A DNA stretch of 64,000 nt from Escherichia phage REP4. This document shows, one piece after another, positions 1,403 to 64,000 of the stretch. Below the pieces are notes generated by a model. That model searched no databases. It saw only the letters and a program-made list of their open reading frames with translations, and had not been told where the DNA came from. The stretch is taken from the sequence record OQ174503.1; one strand, 5' to 3'. The position numbers were made by a program, and so were the translations under genes. Each line of letters opens with the position of its first letter. The first letter of the stretch is position 1.

Positions 1403-2914
1403 ATGACTGACATTAAAGTACATTTTTATGATTTTAGTCACGTGAGAATTGATTGTGAAGAAAGTACATTTCATGAACTCCGTGATTTCTTTAGCTTTGA
1501 AGCTGATGGATATCGTTTTAATCCGAAATACAAATATGGTCACTGGGATGGACGAATCCGTCTTTTAGATTATAATCGCCTTCTTCCGTTTGGCTTAGTC
1601 GGGCAAATTAAAAAGTTCTGTGATAACTTTGGCTATAAAGCCTGGATTGACCCACAAATTAACGAAAAAGAAGAATTATCAAGAAAAGATTTTGATGAAT
1701 GGCTTTCTAAATTAGAAATCTATTCAGGAAATAAAAGAATTGAACCGCATTGGTATCAAAAAGATGCAGTGTTCGAAGGGTTAGTTAATCGTCGTAGAAT
1801 TCTTAATCTTCCAACATCCGCAGGTAAATCTTTAATTCAAGCTTTGCTTGCACGTTATTATTTGGAAAATTATGAAGGTAAAATTCTTATCATTGTTCCA
1901 ACAACTGCTCTGACAACTCAGATGGCTGATGACTTTGTTGATTATCGTTTATTCAGTCATGCAATGATAAAGAAAATTGGCGGCGGAGCATCAAAAGATG
2001 ATAAATATAAAAATGATGCACCGGTAATTGTTGGTACATGGCAAACTGTAGTAAAACAACCAAAAGAATGGTTCTCACAGTTTGGAATGATGATGAATGA
2101 TGAATGCCATCTTGCTACAGGAAAAAGTATTTCATCTATCATATCAGGTTTAAATAACTGCATGTTCAAATTCGGTTTGTCTGGTTCATTACGTGATGGC
2201 AAAGCCAATATCATGCAGTATGTTGGAATGTTTGGTGAAATATTTAAGCCAGTAACGACTTCTAAATTAATGGAAGATGGACAAGTAACTGAGCTAAAAA
2301 TTAATAGTATTTTTCTTCGCTATCCCGATGAGTTCACTACTAAATTAAAGGGAAAAACTTACCAAGAAGAAATAAAAATTATTACTGGGCTCAGTAAAAG
2401 AAATAAATGGATCGCTAAATTAGCTATTAAACTTGCGCAAAAAGATGAAAACGCTTTTGTCATGTTTAAACACGTATCGCACGGTAAAGCTATTTTCGAT
2501 TTAATTAAAAATGAATACGATAAAGTTTATTACGTATCAGGGGAAGTTGATACCGAAACTCGAAACATAATGAAAACCTTAGCTGAAAACGGTAAAGGAA
2601 TAATTATAGTAGCTAGTTATGGTGTATTTTCTACTGGTATTTCAGTTAAAAATCTGCATCATGTTGTTTTAGCGCACGGTGTTAAATCTAAAATTATTGT
2701 ATTGCAAACAATAGGTCGTGTATTACGTAAGCATGGTTCTAAAACAATCGCAACGGTCTGGGACCTCATTGATGATTGCGGTGTTAAGCCAAAATCTGCT
2801 AATACAAAAAAGAAATATGTTCATTTGAACTATCTTTTAAAACACGGCATTGATCGTATTCAGCGCTACGCAGATGAAAAATTTAATTACGTAATGAAAA
2901 CAGTTAATTTATAA
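1403..2914 (+). CDS. uvsW: UvsW SF2 helicase (recombination and replication-fork remodelling)
   Basis: 503 aa; Walker A-like PTSAGKS, DECH box (MMNDECH), helicase C-terminal motifs; matches T4 UvsW in length and sequence. Confidence 0.95.
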   Translation: MTDIKVHFYDFSHVRIDCEESTFHELRDFFSFEADGYRFNPKYKYGHWDGRIRLLDYNRLLPFGLVGQIKKFCDNFGYKAWIDPQINEKEELSRKDFDEWLSKLEIYSGNKRIEPHWYQKDAVFEGLVNRRRILNLPTSAGKSLIQALLARYYLENYEGKILIIVPTTALTTQMADDFVDYRLFSHAMIKKIGGGASKDDKYKNDAPVIVGTWQTVVKQPKEWFSQFGMMMNDECHLATGKSISSIISGLNNCMFKFGLSGSLRDGKANIMQYVGMFGEIFKPVTTSKLMEDGQVTELKINSIFLRYPDEFTTKLKGKTYQEEIKIITGLSKRNKWIAKLAIKLAQKDENAFVMFKHVSHGKAIFDLIKNEYDKVYYVSGEVDTETRNIMKTLAENGKGIIIVASYGVFSTGISVKNLHHVVLAHGVKSKIIVLQTIGRVLRKHGSKTIATVWDLIDDCGVKPKSANTKKKYVHLNYLLKHGIDRIQRYADEKFNYVMKTVNL

Positions 2915-3646: not shown

Positions 3647-4059
3647 TATTTTCCAGCCTCAAATGCTCGCATGTCTTGAATATGCTTGATAGCAAATCCA
3701 CGTGATTTAATAGCATCAAGAGCTCCGCTACAGAAATCCAATAAAATTCCCCAATATTGTAATGAAGTATCAACTTTTAAAACATCCTTATCAGCTGATA
3801 GAACTGTCTTCATTTCTGATTTCTCATAACGATCCATACTAAATTCATCACCATCTCCTCGTCCCGAGTAGTAGTCTAATTTAGCTTTAAGAGCAACTTT
3901 TTTCTGTGCGTCAATTCTAAGCATTTCCTTTTTAATACTTGAATGCTTATTGAGCCATTTACTATATAACATCACATTATTAGCTGCTTCATACTGTAAT
4001 TTAGTCGAATCTATAAACACATCTTTCTTCAATTCTTCTTGAAGATCTTCTAATCTCAT
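3646..4059 (-). CDS. uvsY: UvsY recombination mediator protein
   Basis: 137 aa, MRLEDLQEELKKDVF...; length and sequence match T4 UvsY. Confidence 0.95.
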   Translation of the reverse strand: MRLEDLQEELKKDVFIDSTKLQYEAANNVMLYSKWLNKHSSIKKEMLRIDAQKKVALKAKLDYYSGRGDGDEFSMDRYEKSEMKTVLSADKDVLKVDTSLQYWGILLDFCSGALDAIKSRGFAIKHIQDMRAFEAGK

Positions 4060-4099
4060 ATTGTTCTCTATTCAATTGTTATTGGATGGACTTAGATTC

Positions 4100-4125
4100 A
4101 TTATACCACGTTTACACGTGAAGCA
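4100..4125 (-). promoter_or_regulatory. Putative MotA-dependent middle promoter of uvsY (candidate ori(uvsY)-type origin promoter)
   Basis: On minus strand: MotA-box TGCTTCA, 13-nt spacer, TATAAT, about 40 nt upstream of uvsY ATG; overlaps gene 25 stop. Confidence 0.45.
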
Positions 4126-4524
4126 TTATACTCTATTACTGGAAGCCAGTTGTAGTTTTATCTGCTCAATATCATCAGGGTTATCGATGACCGAAAAGCG
4201 TATTTCTACTATCAGAGTATAATCATCATAAACTGGTATTACATTAACTGCTAATTTATCAATACGTGGCTCGTAGTTTCTTACTGCGCTTTCAATGTTA
4301 CGCTCAACAGTATCAGCAGTAAGAGGAGTCATATTCTCAAAAAGCTGATCAGATAAATCACATCCAAATTCCGGGTCAAATGGTCTCGACCCTTTTCTAG
4401 TTGTAATAATTCCCAAAAGGCTATTTTTAATTGACCTTAATCCAAGGGATCTAGAAACATCTTTGTCCCAATCCATTTTCATTTCTGGGTCAATGTCAGA
4501 ATAAAGCTTATTAATATTTGCCAT
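4126..4524 (-). CDS. 25: gp25 baseplate wedge subunit (lysozyme-like fold)
   Basis: 132 aa, [15 protein letters not shown]...; T4 gp25-like. Confidence 0.95.
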   Translation of the reverse strand: MANINKLYSDIDPEMKMDWDKDVSRSLGLRSIKNSLLGIITTRKGSRPFDPEFGCDLSDQLFENMTPLTADTVERNIESAVRNYEPRIDKLAVNVIPVYDDYTLIVEIRFSVIDNPDDIEQIKLQLASSNRV

Positions 4525-5150
4525 TACAATAGCTCAAAGAATTCTTTGAGTCCTCTTATTACATGAGCGTGAGTTTTTCCACACTCTGGACATTTAATTG
4601 GAACAGCCAAATAAACAGTAGGCTTTAAAAGCATATCTTTTATAGCTACAATATCTGACTCTGTGATGATAGAATATAAATCTTCCAACTCTTTTTCATT
4701 TAAGTCTTCAATTGGAATGCTTTCCCCGTTAGCATGAATCGTTTCTATACATGATACTATCATGTGGGCTATATTTTTATCATCAAAAATTTTAGGGTAA
4801 TGGAACTTAATTTTAATGTCACCCAGTGTATACCAGAGGTCTTCTGGTGCATCTATTTGTGTATGTAATAGATTTATATGGGTTGGTATTTCAGTTCCAC
4901 AGGTGCACTTCCAGGAGTTTTCGTGATTAACTTCTCCAAGAGAATGCGCCCATAAATGAATCAGCAGTAGTTCTGATTCTTGGCGGTTTAAATCTTTTGC
5001 ATTTGTACAGTCTTTGATTAGCTTTTTAACGATCTCTTCTACTGAACCGTTCTTTTTAGCAGTAATAAGTTCTAGATATTCTTTAAGAGTAAATGCGCGA
5101 CAGTTGATTATTTTAGAACCAACTCTCACGTCAAATTTGTATTCATACAT
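4524..5150 (-). CDS. 26: gp26 baseplate hub subunit
   Basis: 208 aa; position and length as T4 gp26. Confidence 0.9.
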
Positions 5151-5171
5151 ATTTAGCTCCTTTATTTATCA

Positions 5172-5183
5172 TATTTATAAATA
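5172..5183. promoter_or_regulatory. Palindromic bidirectional late promoter TATTTATAAATA between divergent genes 26 and 51
   Basis: Contains TATAAATA on both strands, 18 nt before gene 51 ATG and 22 nt before gene 26 ATG. Confidence 0.55.
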
Positions 5184-5200
5184 GAATAAAAGGAGCATCT

Positions 5201-5950
5201 ATGGCAAACATTATTCGTTGTAAATTACCAGATGGTGTTCATCGTTTTAAACCATTTACGGTAGAAGATTATCGAGATTTTTTGTTAGTTCGAAACGATA
5301 TAGAACATCGGTCACCACAAGAACAAAAAGAAATAATTGCTGATTTAATTGCTGATTATTTTGGAGACTATCCGAAGACTTGGCAACCATTTATATTTTT
5401 GCAGGTATTTGTAGGGTCAATAGGTAAAACTAAAGTACCGGTCACATTTGTATGTCCAAAATGTAAAAAAGAAAAGACAGTTCCATTTGAAATATATCAA
5501 AAAGAATTAAAGGAACCTGTTTTTGATGTAGCTAATGTTAAAATTAAATTAAAGTTTCCTTCTGAGTTTTATGAAAATAAAGCAAAGATGATTACTGAAA
5601 ATATTCATTCTGTTCAAGTAGATGAAACATGGTATGATTGGAAGGAAATTAGCGAATCAAGTCAAATAGAACTTGTTGATGCAATCGAGATAGAAACATT
5701 AGAAAAAATTCTCGATGCAATGAATCCTATTAATTTAACATTGCATATGTCGTGTTGTAATAAGTATGTAAAAAAATACACTGATATAGTAGATGTATTT
5801 AAGCTATTAGTTAACCCAGATGAAATATTTACTTTTTATCAAATTAATCACACACTCGTAAAAAGTAATTATAGCTTAAATTCAATAATGAAAATGATTC
5901 CTGCCGAGCGCGGATTCGTATTAAAACTGATTGAGAAGGATAAACAATAA
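5201..5950 (+). CDS. 51: gp51 baseplate hub assembly catalyst
   Basis: 249 aa; CxxC pairs; T4 gp51-like. Confidence 0.9.
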
Positions 5951-53680: not shown

Positions 53681-53830
53681 TTACTGCATGACTGTGATAA
53701 CTGTCATGATAACACGTTGAATGCCGAACGCAAGAAGACCTCCTGCTACGGCTGGAACAACACCTAAACCCGCCAGTAAAATGCTACCAGATACTAATGC
53801 TGCGCTTGTAATACCAATGAATGGACTCAT
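53681..53830 (-). CDS. Small hydrophobic membrane protein (49 aa)
   Basis: Manual ORF MSPFIGITSAALVSGSILLAGLGVVPAVAGGLLAFGIQRVIMTVITVMQ; ATGA overlap with gene 52 stop. Confidence 0.5.
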   Translation of the reverse strand: MSPFIGITSAALVSGSILLAGLGVVPAVAGGLLAFGIQRVIMTVITVMQ

Positions 53831-55155
53831 TTGATTTCCTCTAAATCTTTAGTGTATTCTGTAACTACATCAGTAGTTTTCCAATATTCGTTTTCTTCTT
53901 TCTTAGCTTTAGCTTCTTCAGCAAGTTTCTTTGCTTCGTCGGAAGTCATATGAAAAATATTCATTCCGACTAGTTTATCAACATAAGAAGAATACATCTC
54001 AATTTTAGAAAGTTCTTCGGTCAGTTCTTTGCGAGTTTTACCCTGTACAACGATTTCACCTGAAATTACTTTCTTAATGAAATGTGCCTTGGCAAAGGCT
54101 AAACGAAATGCTGATTCAGTTTCTTTGATTTTGTTATCAATTCGTTTTTGGACATAAGTTTTACGAACTTCAACGAAGTCTTTAATTAAATCAACTACGT
54201 TATCGTAAACTTGTAACTTTCCTTTCTCGTTGATGACTGTAATATTTTGGGAACGACGCTCAATCAACCCGAAGTCTTTCATGATTTTTGCATGGCGTTC
54301 TTCTTCGTTATCGCTCAAAGAATATTCTTTGCGAAATTTAACTTTAAAGCCAAAACCATGCTCACCACAAGCATCATCCCATGTAATGAAGCCCTTATCT
54401 TCAAGCGGGTCTAAGATTTTACTCACATAAGTTTCACGATCATACTTATACGGAATCTCAGTGATATTCATTTGAGTTCGTGAAGTAAACTTGTACGTTC
54501 CACGAATTTCATATTGACCGTCAATTTCAACGACTTCACCACGAAATTCTGGGAATTCTACCTTCGGTTTAGTTACTTTCTTTCCTTGAAGAACTTGTAA
54601 TACAGCTTTCTTAACAGAAGAAACGCTATGAGGAAGAATGTAAGTTGCATAACCAGTTGCAATACCGGAAACACCATTAAGAAGAACAGTAGGAATAATA
54701 GGCAAATAGAAAGCAGGAGGAATGTGTTCTTTATCTTGATGTACCGGAGCATATTCAGTATCTTTATACACGCTATAGAAATTTTTACTTACACGAGCAA
54801 AAATATAACGACTTGCCGCTGCTTTTTGAACAGTACGAGAACCAAAGTTTCCTTGACCATCTAACAAAGGAAAGTTATTATTCCATGTGTTAGCCATCAA
54901 AGCCCCCGCATCTTGTGCAGAGTTTTCGCCATGATGATACCCAAGGTCAGCTACACCACCTGCAATAGAAGCAAGTTTGTGAAACTTATCTTTATTTCCC
55001 CGTGCCAAATCAAGAGCTCGAGCGATAACAAATCGTTGAACTGGCTTAAATCCATCAATCATATTTGGAATAGCACGATTTTCAACCGTGTACATAGCAT
55101 AAGCCAATGCTTCATTATCAATGATACTTTTTAAATCGCGATTATTCAGTTGCAT
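53827..55155 (-). CDS. 52: gp52 topoisomerase II medium subunit
   Basis: 442 aa; GyrA-like active-site region; T4 gp52 length. Confidence 0.95.
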   Translation of the reverse strand: MQLNNRDLKSIIDNEALAYAMYTVENRAIPNMIDGFKPVQRFVIARALDLARGNKDKFHKLASIAGGVADLGYHHGENSAQDAGALMANTWNNNFPLLDGQGNFGSRTVQKAAASRYIFARVSKNFYSVYKDTEYAPVHQDKEHIPPAFYLPIIPTVLLNGVSGIATGYATYILPHSVSSVKKAVLQVLQGKKVTKPKVEFPEFRGEVVEIDGQYEIRGTYKFTSRTQMNITEIPYKYDRETYVSKILDPLEDKGFITWDDACGEHGFGFKVKFRKEYSLSDNEEERHAKIMKDFGLIERRSQNITVINEKGKLQVYDNVVDLIKDFVEVRKTYVQKRIDNKIKETESAFRLAFAKAHFIKKVISGEIVVQGKTRKELTEELSKIEMYSSYVDKLVGMNIFHMTSDEAKKLAEEAKAKKEENEYWKTTDVVTEYTKDLEEIK

Positions 55156-58555: not shown

Positions 58556-59494
58556 TTATTTGAATTGTTCAGTAACGTCTTCAACTACTTCGTATTGGCA
58601 AGTACGCATTTTAGCATCGTTGTAATCAATCGGAATTGATACTACATCGCGAGGATGCACTTTAACTTTTACAACTCGACTGGTTGAACTACCAAAGTGA
58701 CGAATATAAGATTTAGAACACACATGCAGACCACGAGAACAAGTTTGTGTATCATCGTCATTCACACGAGTACGTGGCATTTTAACTACTTTACCAGGAC
58801 TGTTATCAAAAGTATTTGAATGGCAGTCAAAGTAATTACTGCGAACTACTTTCCAAGCATAGAAGTAACCGTCTTCTGTAATTTCAATATCGTTTGCTAC
58901 CAAGAAATCAAAGAGTCGAGATACCGCTTTTTGGCTTGGGTTTTCCAGCAGATTTTCCAAGAACGGAAAATAAAATTCAAAGTTTTCGCCTTTTTCCATC
59001 GAATCGAGAATACGATCAACTAAACCAGACCGCAATTCAATGTTTTGATAGAACAAGCTTCCACCTTCAATTCGAACATCACCGGAAATATATTTTTCAA
59101 CAGCGCGACGAACGTTAATTTTTTGTGCTGCTTCTTCCAATTTATCTGCAACAAGCAGGTTAAGAATTTCCTGGAAGTTTGAATGAGTATTAGGAGTTGC
59201 GTTATAAGTTACGCCGTCAACAGTAATTGAAATGAATTTTTTAGATGCATTCCAAATAATGTCAGATTTAGCAACTGGAGCAATAGCTACATCACTCTTA
59301 ACTTCAACTGTAATGTCACCGCTAATAGTAACTTTGGAGCGTTCAGCTTCTTCAGCATTTTTCAAAACACGACGGATGGTGTCAACCGATACATCTTTCC
59401 AATAAGCCAATTCCTGTTGGGTATAATTACCGCTTGAATACAGTTTAACAATTTCAGCTTGTTCGTTTTTGGTCAGGCATTTAATATTGTACAT
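58556..59494 (-). CDS. rIIB: rIIB membrane-associated protein
   Basis: 312 aa, MYNIKCLTKNEQAEIVKLYSSGNYTQQELA... Confidence 0.95.
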   Translation of the reverse strand: MYNIKCLTKNEQAEIVKLYSSGNYTQQELAYWKDVSVDTIRRVLKNAEEAERSKVTISGDITVEVKSDVAIAPVAKSDIIWNASKKFISITVDGVTYNATPNTHSNFQEILNLLVADKLEEAAQKINVRRAVEKYISGDVRIEGGSLFYQNIELRSGLVDRILDSMEKGENFEFYFPFLENLLENPSQKAVSRLFDFLVANDIEITEDGYFYAWKVVRSNYFDCHSNTFDNSPGKVVKMPRTRVNDDDTQTCSRGLHVCSKSYIRHFGSSTSRVVKVKVHPRDVVSIPIDYNDAKMRTCQYEVVEDVTEQFK

Positions 59495-59505
59495 AATTTT
59501 CCTTA

Positions 59506-61683
59506 TTAGGCCGCAAGGGCCTTCATAGTTTTAGCGATTTGGGAAACTTCATCATCACTTAAAGAGTTGCGATAACCGATGAAGTCGGAAACAATACGGA
59601 ATTTCTTGGTAAACTCAGCAACCATTTTATCACTGTTTTTTGAAGCATTATTTGATAATACATCAAAAAGATTAGTTACTGTCCAGATGTCATGACCAAT
59701 GGTATCTTTTCCACCATTAAAATATACACCCTGTAATGAACTAACCATATTAGCGAGTCGTGTATATTCTTCAGAAACTTCATCTACACTGAAGTACTTC
59801 ATCATAAAATCTAACTCAGGATACTTGATAATTTTATCAATATATCGTTTAGCTGAACTTGAATAACCTACATACTTATCATAATCTACATCATCAAAAG
59901 CATCTACATATAAATCACGCAGAGTTTCAAAAATACATTGGCACTGACCAAGTTCTTTTACCTTTTTCTGCAAAAGCGGACGAATAACATAAAATTCATT
60001 AATGCCAATAAGATTAGCCATACGAGTCAAAATACTCGTAGATGGATGACAAAGCGATGTAGTACCATCCATAGAGAAAATATCAGAACGATGCATGTAT
60101 GCTACATAACCAGTAATTTCATCTGCTTCTGACGTAAGTGTAAATAGTTCCTCTTTTTCCCAGCGTCCGTCTTTAATTTCAAACTTAAATGCAGTAGCAG
60201 CTTTAGGACGAGGAGCTTTACTTTTAACTGCCTTCGGAATATAACTTTTAACTAAAGCTTCAATTTCTGACAAATAATGAATGTTAACTTCATCACTTTC
60301 AAACATTGCCATAATATCAGGAAGCAAATCAATCTGCGATTCTACTTCCGGATTAATAAACAAAAGGCGTTCATTGTGATGAATATTCAAAGTGTTATTA
60401 AATTCGCTATCATCTAATGCACGTGCTAATCCACGGACAATATTAACACGATTTTTAATATTATCAATAATGATATTAATTTTTGTTGTGTTAATACCAA
60501 ACAGACGATAACTTGATGCAACGGCTGAAGTTTCATGGCTTTGCTTAATGCGTTTCAGTCGAGGGTCAAGATTTACTTCATACACAACTCCTGCATTGCA
60601 TAACTTACTGTCAGGTTCAAACATGCTTTGCATCTTCTTATATGACAGATTTTTAGTCGTGAATTTGACCGAATTACTAATCATATAATCTCGAGCAGAA
60701 TATCCCATCTTCATTAATTCACGGTATGTATGACGAGGAGATGTAGATTCTTTAAATCGTTTTACATCTTCATTGAATGCCTTTTCACTAAGCTCTTTAA
60801 CACGCTCAATAATATTTTTACGAGTACGATCATCTAATGAAAGAGCTTCGCGTGATGGAGCAATATCAAGTGAACCCATTGGAAACTTAATGTAATTCAC
60901 TTCATTGCGGATGCTTAACCAGTTACGATCTCTAATAACACCTTCGATAGGATAAACAATGCCGCCATAGATAGCATACAATCCACCGCGATCTGGCCAG
61001 TATCTTTCTGGATTTACGCCGTAATAATCATCAAAATCCGGAAAATAATCAATTTCGCGGTCAAGACCGTTAATGATAGCTAAATCTTTGAATGGTCGCA
61101 TGATATAAGAAACTTCATAAGCAAAGTTTCTAAAATCTTTTTCTTCAACTGGAACTACGATTTCAATACCAGTTTTATCATTTGGACCCATTTCTTTTAC
61201 GAATGTAGGTTTAATTTGCGGACCGTCACCATCCATGTAAGCTACATAACCGCGAATTTCGCCTTTATGATATGAAGTAATACTGAATGTATCAGTATAA
61301 CTAAACGGGGATTTAGAACCTAAACCAAATCCGCCAATGAAATCGTTAGATTCAGCCTTAGATGAACTAAAGTATGAATTATACAACCCAGGAGAATTAT
61401 CATCACCCTGAATATCAAAATCGCTCATACCCGGACCAAAATCTCGACAAACAAATCGCGGATCTAATCGTCCTGGAACTTGAATGATAAATTTTTCAGG
61501 ATTTCCATTGAGAGCATGGGCATCAATCATGTTGGTAATCAATTCACGGACTACTGCACGAATCTTGTTTGTATACAAATCAGATGATAGAATTTTAAAT
61601 ACTTTAGGATTTGCTGCGATGCTAAATGCTTTTGATTTAGAACCATTACCAAGAATTGTTTCTTTTTCAGTGGTGATAATCAT
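59506..61683 (-). CDS. rIIA: rIIA protein (GHKL-type ATPase fold)
   Basis: 725 aa; N-terminal [10 protein letters not shown] Bergerat-fold motif. Confidence 0.97.
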
Positions 61684-61693
61684 AATTTCCTCA

Positions 61694-61897
61694 TTAATTC
61701 ATATTGCGTTTAATAACTTCAGCAACTTCTAGTAGTTCATCTTTAGTTGCAGTGTCGGATTGAATTTTATCTCTAATGTCCTTAAAGCGGTTTTTAAACT
61801 CTTCGGCTTCTCCCATATCGAAAAAGCGTTGAATGATTCTATATTCTCGATGAACTGCTTTATCAAAAAGTTCTAAATTTACTCTATATGATTTCAT
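61694..61897 (-). CDS. Hypothetical protein (rIIA.1 position, 67 aa)
   Basis: Track ORF. Confidence 0.6.
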
Positions 61898-61951
61898 TTC
61901 AATATCCTCATTTACCCAATTAATTATACCACATCCTTGTGGTAAAGTAAA

Positions 61952-63772
61952 CTACTGGCTCATCCATTCTTTACGAAGGTCAGCATTATCTCCCATGAGC
62001 ATTTCAAAAAGCTCTTTCCAATTCTCAGGAAGTTTAACAACATCATATACTGGATTTTGAATCATCTCACGATATTCAGATTTTTCCAAAGAGCCAAGTC
62101 CTTTAATATAACGGATGCTATGTTTAGGTAGAGCATCTTTGGCACTCTCATATTCAGCGACTGTATAAAACCATTCTTGTTTTTTACCGACCTGAGCGAT
62201 GATTACAGGAGTTTTGACAAAGCGAATTCTTCCTTGTTCAAACAATTCTGGCCAATTACTAAAAAATCCGAGCAGAGAAGGATAAATGCTTCCTAGACCA
62301 TCATGGTCAGCATCAGTCATAATAGCAATATTATGATAATTCAAGTTTTCGGCTTTTTCACCAAGAACTAATCCAGTGATTGCGCAAATATCAAACAGTT
62401 CTTTGTTTTTAAGCATATCAGCATATGACATACCCCAACTGTTGAGAACTTTACCACGCAATGGATAACCGCCATGAAGTTCTTTATCACGAACATCAAT
62501 AAGATATCCGATAGCAGAATCACCCTCAGTCAAGAAAAGAGTAGTGTCAGCATCTTTACCACAAAGATTCGCTTTAATATGTTTATGAACCTTAGCTTTA
62601 GAGGCCTTTTTAGCTGCTTTAGTTTCAGCTGCTTTTTCTGCCGCCAATTTACGAGCCAAGGCAGCTTCAATAATTGGCATTAAAATTGCTTCATTATTCA
62701 AAATAGCACGTGAAATCTTTTTAGCATCAAGCTGAATATGACTACGGATTTCACCAAATGGAGAAGTCAAACGCTCTTTAGTTTGAGAATCAAATCGCAT
62801 GTTTTTCATATCACGAACAAACATAACGATAGTCAAGCATTCTTTAACACGTGCTTTAGTTACATCAATTTTGAATTTACGTTTGATTTGTGGAATAAGG
62901 TCTTCACAAATATCATCCATAACACAGTCAATATGATGGCCACCATTCTTAGTATGAATGTTATTGACGTATGTTAATTGACGAAAACCATCAGGTGAAC
63001 GACCGACCGCAATAGAACAATTTTCTTGTTCTTGAACAATAGCATGTTCATCATATTGGCGTGCATATTTCTTAAAATTACCCTGAACCTTTTTACCATT
63101 AAATGTAAATTGAATATCAGGATAAACTACTGCAAGTGTCTGGAGACGATCCAGTGTAATGTCAAGATAAACTTGAGATAGCTCATTAGTTTCAAATGAC
63201 ATAAAATCAGGAATGAAAGTAACGCGAGTTCCTTTCCATTTTCCAGGAATATCTTCCCACGATTTATTTTCCATGCCGTTTGAACAACGAACTACAATAT
63301 TATTTTGACCATCACCAGTTTCACCGACAAACATCACAGAAAAAATGTTAGTTAAACTAGAACCAACACCGTTCATACCACCAGTGACGCGTTCTTTATC
63401 ATCACCGAAGTTACCACCTGCTTTTGGAATAGTCCATGCAGCAACTGGACCAGGAATTTCTTCACCAGTAGGTGTTTTAACCATCGCCTGCGGAATACCA
63501 CGACCGTTATCTTCAACTGTTACTTGATTGTTTTTAATAGTAACATTAATTTTATTTGCGAATTTAAACTTAGTACGAATACCTTCATCTACTGAGTTAT
63601 CGATAATTTCATCAATAAGCTTAACAAGACCAGGTACATACTGAACACTTTCCCATTTACCAAACAGAAAGCGCTCATGCATTTCATTAGCAGAAGAACC
63701 AATGTACATGCCGCTACGCTTTTTGATATGTTCAATATCGCTCAGAATTTTAATTTCATTCTTAATCATCAC
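61952..63772 (-). CDS. 39: Topoisomerase II large (ATPase/Toprim) subunit, unsplit gene 39
   Basis: 606 aa continuous ORF covering GHKL ATPase (EIIDNSVDEG), transducer and Toprim (LFLTEGDSA, DADHDG) regions. Confidence 0.95.
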   Translation of the reverse strand: MMIKNEIKILSDIEHIKKRSGMYIGSSANEMHERFLFGKWESVQYVPGLVKLIDEIIDNSVDEGIRTKFKFANKINVTIKNNQVTVEDNGRGIPQAMVKTPTGEEIPGPVAAWTIPKAGGNFGDDKERVTGGMNGVGSSLTNIFSVMFVGETGDGQNNIVVRCSNGMENKSWEDIPGKWKGTRVTFIPDFMSFETNELSQVYLDITLDRLQTLAVVYPDIQFTFNGKKVQGNFKKYARQYDEHAIVQEQENCSIAVGRSPDGFRQLTYVNNIHTKNGGHHIDCVMDDICEDLIPQIKRKFKIDVTKARVKECLTIVMFVRDMKNMRFDSQTKERLTSPFGEIRSHIQLDAKKISRAILNNEAILMPIIEAALARKLAAEKAAETKAAKKASKAKVHKHIKANLCGKDADTTLFLTEGDSAIGYLIDVRDKELHGGYPLRGKVLNSWGMSYADMLKNKELFDICAITGLVLGEKAENLNYHNIAIMTDADHDGLGSIYPSLLGFFSNWPELFEQGRIRFVKTPVIIAQVGKKQEWFYTVAEYESAKDALPKHSIRYIKGLGSLEKSEYREMIQNPVYDVVKLPENWKELFEMLMGDNADLRKEWMSQ

Positions 63773-63838
63773 TTATCCTCGTTTGGTTTCGGGAATATTA
63801 TACTCCGGTAATCATAAAGCTAAAGGCCCGAAGGCCTT

Positions 63839-64000
63839 TTATTTAAAACGGATAGTCGAATCCTTGAAGAAAAGACCAGAACATACTGTTCCTTCTACTT
63901 TCTGCCCGGTAGGTCCAATAGCACGAAATCCAGTATGTTGGAAATCATTTTCAGAGCAACCGAACCAATTATATCCAGTGATTTCAATATTAGTAAAACC
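63839..64000 (-). CDS. C-terminal 53 codons of a gene whose start lies beyond the window end
   Basis: Manual minus-strand translation ...GFTNIEITGYNWFGCSENDFQHTGFRAIGPTGQKVEGTVCSGLFFKDSTIRFK*; preceded by hairpin ggcccgaaggcc. Confidence 0.45.
   Translation of the reverse strand, partial: GFTNIEITGYNWFGCSENDFQHTGFRAIGPTGQKVEGTVCSGLFFKDSTIRFK

Follow-up and report, generated by a model that had tools for sequence, protein, structure and literature searches.

The topoisomerase of phage T4 relaxes DNA without supercoiling it. In T2 and T6, the enzyme is organized as two subunits, gp39 and gp52, and gp39 of T6 is known from several solved structures (PDB 8YLU, 8YO1, 8YOD and others). In this protein, E415, D486 and D488 bind metal, while R438, K440, D490 and K556 contact DNA, and the same study also assayed a chimeric enzyme composed of T6 gp39 and T4 gp52 (PMC11461880). 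The T4 enzyme, by contrast, has three subunits. In the T4 reference genome (NC_000866), the gene order is rIIA, rIIA.1, gene 60, 60.1, mobA and gene 39, with gene 60 joined across a 50-nt bypass (2803..2852). The mobA gene of this reference (L001 2971-3767) consists of fragments, namely 60.1 and a 114-nt ‘defective’ mobA; an intact 272-aa mobA is found in T4T (L003 1678-2496) and in about 40 other phages, where the cassette is 11 nt shorter than in the T4 reference.

The origin of the split gene has been modelled. On this view, a parental topoisomerase gene is invaded by a MobA homing-endonuclease element of ~1.1 kb, whereby 55-75 nt are deleted (64 nt in the T4-clade example) and extensions, a diverged copy of the replaced segment and a bypass cassette are added (Manning and Atkins, 2022, bioRxiv 10.1101/2022.08.31.505936). 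The bypass is reported to shield the invaded genome from re-cleavage, and the T2 MobA nick site is reported to lie within the region of the 64-nt segment; for both statements, Manning and Atkins (2022) cite Bonocora et al. (2011). The unsplit gene 39 is likewise already published: it appears in Manning and Atkins (2022), in the 2024 structures of T6 topoisomerase II and, to the extent that it is cited there, in Bonocora et al. (2011).

Here, we describe gene 39 of Escherichia phage REP4 (OQ174503.1), as found in a stretch of 64,000 nucleotides that we refer to as the window. We are nearly certain that it is an intact and functional, unsplit gene 39 of the T2/T6 type, carried by a T4-like phage of the genus Tequatrovirus and representing the usual state of this group. 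According to both the ORF list and the sequence, a single open frame of 606 codons, counted from a GTG, occupies positions 61952..63772 on the minus strand and contains no internal stop; at the G+C content of the window (35.7%), the chance of 606 stop-free codons is ~1e-20. An earlier note on this DNA had described the gene as a single 606-codon ORF and had given no strand for it. While its continuity stands, its length most likely needs to be corrected by one codon: the GTG at 63772 is merely the mechanical start of the ORF, and the biological start is most likely the ATG one codon downstream, at 63769, because gp39 of T4, T2 and ime09 all begin with MIKNEIK at the equivalent ATG. The predicted product thus has 605 and not 606 residues. 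The gene, its ribosome-binding site, its neighbors and the gene for the partner subunit are located as follows.

61952..63769, minus strand: gene 39, unsplit, encoding the topoisomerase II large (GyrB-like) subunit of 605 aa plus stop; identified by its ORF, Pfam matches, identity to T2 gp39 and match to T6 gp39
63776..63780, minus strand: GAGGA, putative ribosome-binding site 6 nt upstream of ATG 63769; read from the sequence, with its function suggested by the spacing
61694..61897, minus strand: rIIA.1, the downstream neighbor (Pfam PF24210, E = 2e-33; order as in T2, T4 and ime09)
59506..61683, minus strand: 725-aa ORF at the rIIA position, with the same length as rIIA of T4, T2 and ime09 (ORF list, position)
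58556..59494, minus strand: 312-aa ORF at the rIIB position (ORF list, position)
53827..55155, minus strand: gene 52, encoding a GyrA-like DNA breakage-reunion protein of 442 aa, the medium subunit of topoisomerase II (ORF; PF00521, E = 1e-76)

The order rIIA.1-39-39.1 is that of T2, within an overall T-even gene order. Of the gene 39.1 homolog, the window includes the 3′ part (63840-64000, minus strand) with a stop codon at about 63840-63842, as judged from the sequence and the layout in ime09 and T2; the remainder lies beyond the window edge, which is why the gene is absent from the ORF list. Between the end of 39.1 and gene 39, there is a perfect UUCG-tetraloop hairpin (AAAGGCC-TTCG-GGCCTTT, 63822-63839, minus strand), which is unrelated to the take-off hairpin of gene 60. 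On its 3′ side it is followed by AGCTTTA, 12 nt and TATAAT, an arrangement upstream of gene 39 that we take to resemble a MotA-dependent middle promoter of T4. A sigma-70-like site (61923-61951, minus strand), composed of TTTACT, 17 nt and TATAAT with an upstream TG, is located directly after the gene 39 stop and before rIIA.1. In the promoter/terminator scan, the number of sites was no higher than in shuffled sequence.

On the protein level, the frame spans the ATPase and Toprim regions, in line with the earlier description. The domains and catalytic motifs are distributed over the chain in the following way.

aa 48-150: HATPase_c ATPase domain (Pfam PF02518, E = 2e-9)
aa 251-385: DNA_gyraseB transducer domain (Pfam PF00204, E = 1.5e-13)
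aa 520-605: TOPRIM_C domain (Pfam PF16898)
63356..63610, minus strand: GHKL ATPase motifs (N-box, G1 and G2), EIIDNSVDE at aa 54-62, DNGRGIP at aa 87-93 and GMNGVGSS at aa 131-138 (motif positions, PF02518)
62777..62785, minus strand: transducer QTK loop at aa 329-331, embedded in RFDSQTKERL (motif position, PF00204)
62513..62527, minus strand: Toprim EGDSA motif with the metal-binding residue E415, numbered as in T6 (PMC11461880)
62297..62314, minus strand: Toprim DADHDG motif with D486, D488, D490 and G491 (motif position)

The Pfam Toprim model PF01751 yielded no score at E <= 0.001 in the gene 39 protein. The assignment is based instead on the E...DxD motif, the TOPRIM_C match and the T6 structure, which together indicate that a Toprim domain is present and uninterrupted. 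The metal-binding residues E415, D486 and D488 and the DNA-contacting residues R438, K440, D490 and K556 are all found at identical numbers in the window protein and in T6. The best match among solved structures is T6 gp39 (8ylu_C), aligned over residues 1-605. An engineered fusion of T4 gp39 and gp60 (8yo3_C) ranks second, ahead of Top2 of human and yeast and ParE of bacteria, for which the alignments also extend over nearly the whole protein. From the full-length match to T6 gp39, we infer that the enzyme containing this gp39 would catalyze ATP-dependent strand passage. Furthermore, because gp39 is near-identical to its T2 and T6 counterparts, the phage is expected to produce a type IIA topoisomerase that depends on ATP and consists of two subunits (gp39 + gp52), as in T2 and T6, and not the three-subunit enzyme of T4.

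When aligned with the two T4 proteins, the window ORF is covered completely. T4 gp39 1-473 corresponds to window residues 2-474 (numbered from the GTG) with 98.5% identity and no gaps, and T4 gp60 27-160 corresponds to residues 473-606, the last 134 of the ORF, with 95.5% identity and again no gaps. The two segments tile the whole ORF without a gap, and its C-terminal part is the equivalent of gp60. T4 gp39 474-516 and gp60 1-26, on the other hand, have no counterpart in the window in this protein alignment. The DNA breakpoints, as determined by blastn, tell the same story: window 64000..62352 equals T4 5559..3911, and window 62287..61600 equals T4 2793..2106, with 64 nt in between in the window (62351..62288) compared to 1117 nt at the same place in T4. 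In T4, this stretch accommodates the tail of gp39, mobA/60.1, the head of gp60 and the coding gap of 50 nt. The window segment found in its place is an exact match in length to the figure of Manning and Atkins.

62288..62351, minus strand: 64-nt parental segment, lost from T4-type genomes and replaced there by the 1117-nt MobA/bypass cassette (blastn breakpoints; alignment of T2, ime09 and T4)

The hop site itself differs as well. In T4, it reads GAT GGA TAG, followed by the rest of the 50-nt gap, which ends in GGA, and then by TTA GGT. The equivalent site in the window reads GAT GGT CTA GGA AGC, where G491 (GGT, 62299..62297) takes the position of the T4 GGA take-off codon, and the alignment shows a clean 50-nt gap in the window relative to T4. 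The GGA codon for take-off, the UAG and a matched GGA for landing are all missing at this site, as are the hairpin and the nascent-peptide signal. When up to 3 mismatches were allowed, the 50-nt gap sequence had 0 matches across the 64-kb window. Likewise, with tblastn, the intact MobA of T4T (272 aa) reached a best E of 2.2 against the whole 64 kb, which is at chance level, and over all three queries, namely MobA and the extensions of gp60 (N-terminal) and gp39 (C-terminal), matches in the same 64 kb did not rise above chance (best E = 0.27). The sole DNA match to the T4 cassette is 46 nt long (62298..62343, 76% identity); it is the parental counterpart of the short diverged copy carried by the cassette, as expected for a parental gene. 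Other ORFs within gene 39 are nested in alternative frames and measure at most 79 aa, and the five largest of them have no Pfam match, i.e. they reveal no hidden endonuclease. The earlier note had stated that a mobile insertion splits the T4 equivalent into genes 39 and 60, and that the present gene has neither the gene 60 bypass nor an inserted endonuclease or intervening ORF; both statements are borne out by these data.

The gene was further compared with that of T2. The window gene aligns with T2 gene 39 over 1818 nt without gaps and with 96.3% DNA identity, a silent divergence of ~3.7%, and the proteins agree in 604 of 605 residues, with F70 in the window and L70 in T2. Because 65 of the codon differences are synonymous and one is non-synonymous, this indicates that gene 39 has evolved under strong purifying selection. 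Within the 62288..62351 segment, only the first base differs from T2, a synonymous GCC/GCT wobble at 62351; from GAAAAC (62350) on, the two phages agree in every base of the segment and of no less than 45 nt downstream.

A further difference concerns the T4 reference. At codons ~325-331 of gp39, NC_000866 encodes NMRLIRQTK, whereas the window (62777-62800, minus strand), T2 and T4T have NMRFDSQTK. On the DNA level, this comes down to a compensating -1/+1 indel pair, CGATTTGATTCTCAA against CGATTGATTCGTCAA, and the old T4 reference probably carries a sequencing error just before the catalytic QTK loop.

To place the gene among its relatives, we used two surveys. In a census of close relatives, megablast with window 61690-64000 matched 535 phage records, and in 496 of them a single contiguous match extends over at least 80% of the query. 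The T4 cassette is present in 43 records only, several of them T4 isolates, and the unsplit form thereby outnumbers the split form by ~11 to 1 among close relatives. In a wider census, tblastn with the 605-aa protein matched 2209 phage records, 2019 of them at one site and over at least 80% of the protein. Among the full-length matches sampled, a single one is interrupted, that of a phage with the MobA cassette; the others are in one piece and include Aeromonas phage 31, phage JSE, RB49-type phages and phages of Acinetobacter, Shewanella, Vibrio and Klebsiella. A protein identical to that of the window is encoded in three of the records sampled. The Toprim domain is in one piece in cellular homologs, too. 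Judged by these counts, the unsplit gene 39 is the majority state and has a broad phylogenetic spread. The view that it is the ‘ancestral, T2-like’ arrangement, as put forward in the earlier note, is supported, because the unsplit form is in the majority and is found in T4-like phages as distant as those of Aeromonas, Acinetobacter and Vibrio and also in cellular type IIA topoisomerases, and its distribution fits the published model in which a MobA cassette inserts into a parental gene.

The genomic surroundings are of a more mixed nature. In its part 39001-64000, the window has the makeup of a mosaic Tequatrovirus, and no record in the phage collection searched is near-identical to it. The best 25-kb match is 93-95% identical and falls into 4-7 pieces, with breaks for the most part near the tail-fibre genes. 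Gene 39, by comparison, shares 98% identity with many phages.

An ancestral gene is not the only history that could leave an open frame. It is conceivable that an ancestor carried the MobA/bypass cassette and lost it precisely, in which case the frame would be restored and not ancestral in this lineage. ‘Hit and run’ clades and repeated gain and loss of the element have in fact been described (Manning and Atkins, 10.1101/2022.08.31.505936), and in Tequatroviruses, which are highly mosaic (best 25-kb match 93-95%), recombination with an unsplit phage could swap the cassette out cleanly and would leave no trace. Yet the published hit-and-run cases retain both extensions (Manning and Atkins, 10.1101/2022.08.31.505936), whereas the window shows no trace of either extension (C-terminal in gp39, N-terminal in gp60) or of the gap. 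Its 62288..62351 segment is also of the parental type, one synonymous base away from T2 and only 76% identical to the cassette-borne copy of T4, and the ratio of ~11:1 in favor of the unsplit form among close relatives equally argues against a loss. We therefore regard such a reversion as very improbable.

Two other possibilities are more remote still, to much the same degree. Manning and Atkins (10.1101/2022.08.31.505936) list other phages in which this locus has variants with intein domains or with endonucleases of the GIY-YIG or VSR type, and one might accordingly ask whether gene 39 is interrupted here at some other point, be it by an intein, by a group I intron or by a homing endonuclease other than MobA. 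However, the gene is colinear with gene 39 of T2 and ime09 over 1818 nt, ungapped and equal in length, and the lack of Pfam matches in its five largest nested ORFs points in the same direction; we consider such an interruption practically negligible. The same is true for the idea that the ORF arose through an error of assembly or annotation, or that it is an inactive pseudogene which has stayed open by chance. Nothing was found in favor of this idea, and it is hard to reconcile with the ~1e-20 chance of 606 stop-free codons, with the 65 synonymous versus one non-synonymous differences from T2, with the presence of all catalytic residues and with the identical protein in independent phage records.

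We thus return to an intact, unsplit gene of the T2/T6 type, a reading that no feature of the sequence contradicts, and to what it would mean for the phage. The gp39 polypeptide combines an N-terminal GHKL ATPase domain, a transducer that has the QTK loop and, with E415 and D486xD488, a Toprim domain in a single chain. By close homology to T2 and T6, it would assemble with gp52 into an A2B2 enzyme in which, at the expense of ATP, one duplex is moved through a double-strand break opened transiently in a second duplex. In T4, the cassette splits the gene inside the Toprim domain, giving rise to genes 39 and 60 and to the 50-nt gap over which the ribosome hops. The gene described here is free of the MobA homing-endonuclease cassette, either because it was never invaded or because the cassette has been lost again, and its translation should therefore be ordinary and colinear. 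In a mixed infection, the phage would then act as a naive recipient for MobA homing: it is predicted to be cleavable by MobA because its nick region is base-for-base that of T2 from GAAAAC (62350) on. The nick is predicted to fall into the stretch coding for NYHNIAIMTDADHDG. Enzyme activity, two-subunit assembly and MobA sensitivity are, for this phage, expectations drawn from sequence comparison.

For annotation, this means that one topoisomerase II large subunit of 605 aa should be called from the ATG, whereas neither a programmed bypass nor a gene 60 should be annotated. The absence of the T4 split and of the ribosome hop in gene 39 is ordinary and nothing new; the window gene is a further example of the common parental state against which the MobA/bypass cassette of T4 is defined. 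With regard to MobA-driven homing, we predict that the phage is a recipient and not a donor. We give little credence to a more far-reaching reading, in which the phage stems from a lineage with the cassette and has lost the element precisely, as in a scarless ‘hit and run’. Alternatively, its T2-type target site makes it a naive recipient in which MobA homing among wild Tequatroviruses could be followed. If scarless loss of the cassette were true, the T4 split would be fully reversible in nature; both that and the use as a naive recipient would be small additions to the published model.

In comparison with the known systems, the gene differs from the T4-type split 39/60 in every feature that is specific to the latter. 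The topoisomerase-coding parts of T4 are orthologous to the window gene, and the surrounding genes are the same. T4, however, has the HNH homing endonuclease gene mobA between the two halves; the cassette-encoded extensions, i.e. 43 aa at the C-terminus of gp39 and ~30 aa at the N-terminus of gp60, the latter with the nascent-peptide signal; the diverged copy of the replaced segment; and the 50-nt gap with its GGA pair, the UAG after the take-off codon (GGA-UAG...GGA) and the take-off stem-loop. None of these is found in the window. A more distant likeness exists to the cellular enzymes: GyrB, ParE and the N-terminal half of eukaryotic Top2 have the ATPase-transducer-Toprim order in one chain, just as the window protein, with alignments that extend over aa 10-603 for human TOP2A/TOP2B, 7-605 for yeast Top2 and 6-603 for bacterial ParE. 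In sequence, these cellular type IIA B subunits are distant from it (E about 1e-36 to 1e-60).

The true counterparts of the gene are found among the phages. T2 (MH751506) has a 605-aa gene 39 between rIIA.1 and 39.1, as in the window, and gp39 of T6 is unsplit, 605 aa long and shares the numbering of the catalytic residues; for both phages, the two-subunit organization with gp52 is the one proposed here. In ime09, the gene is annotated as ‘gp60plus39’ and encodes 605 aa, unsplit and in the same gene order as in the window, with 97.5% DNA identity and only point substitutions, free of gaps, over 1818 nt. Finally, the ‘parental Topo2L’ genes of Manning and Atkins (2022) are of the same unsplit type, and the 64-nt segment of the window has the size of their clade 1 deletion.
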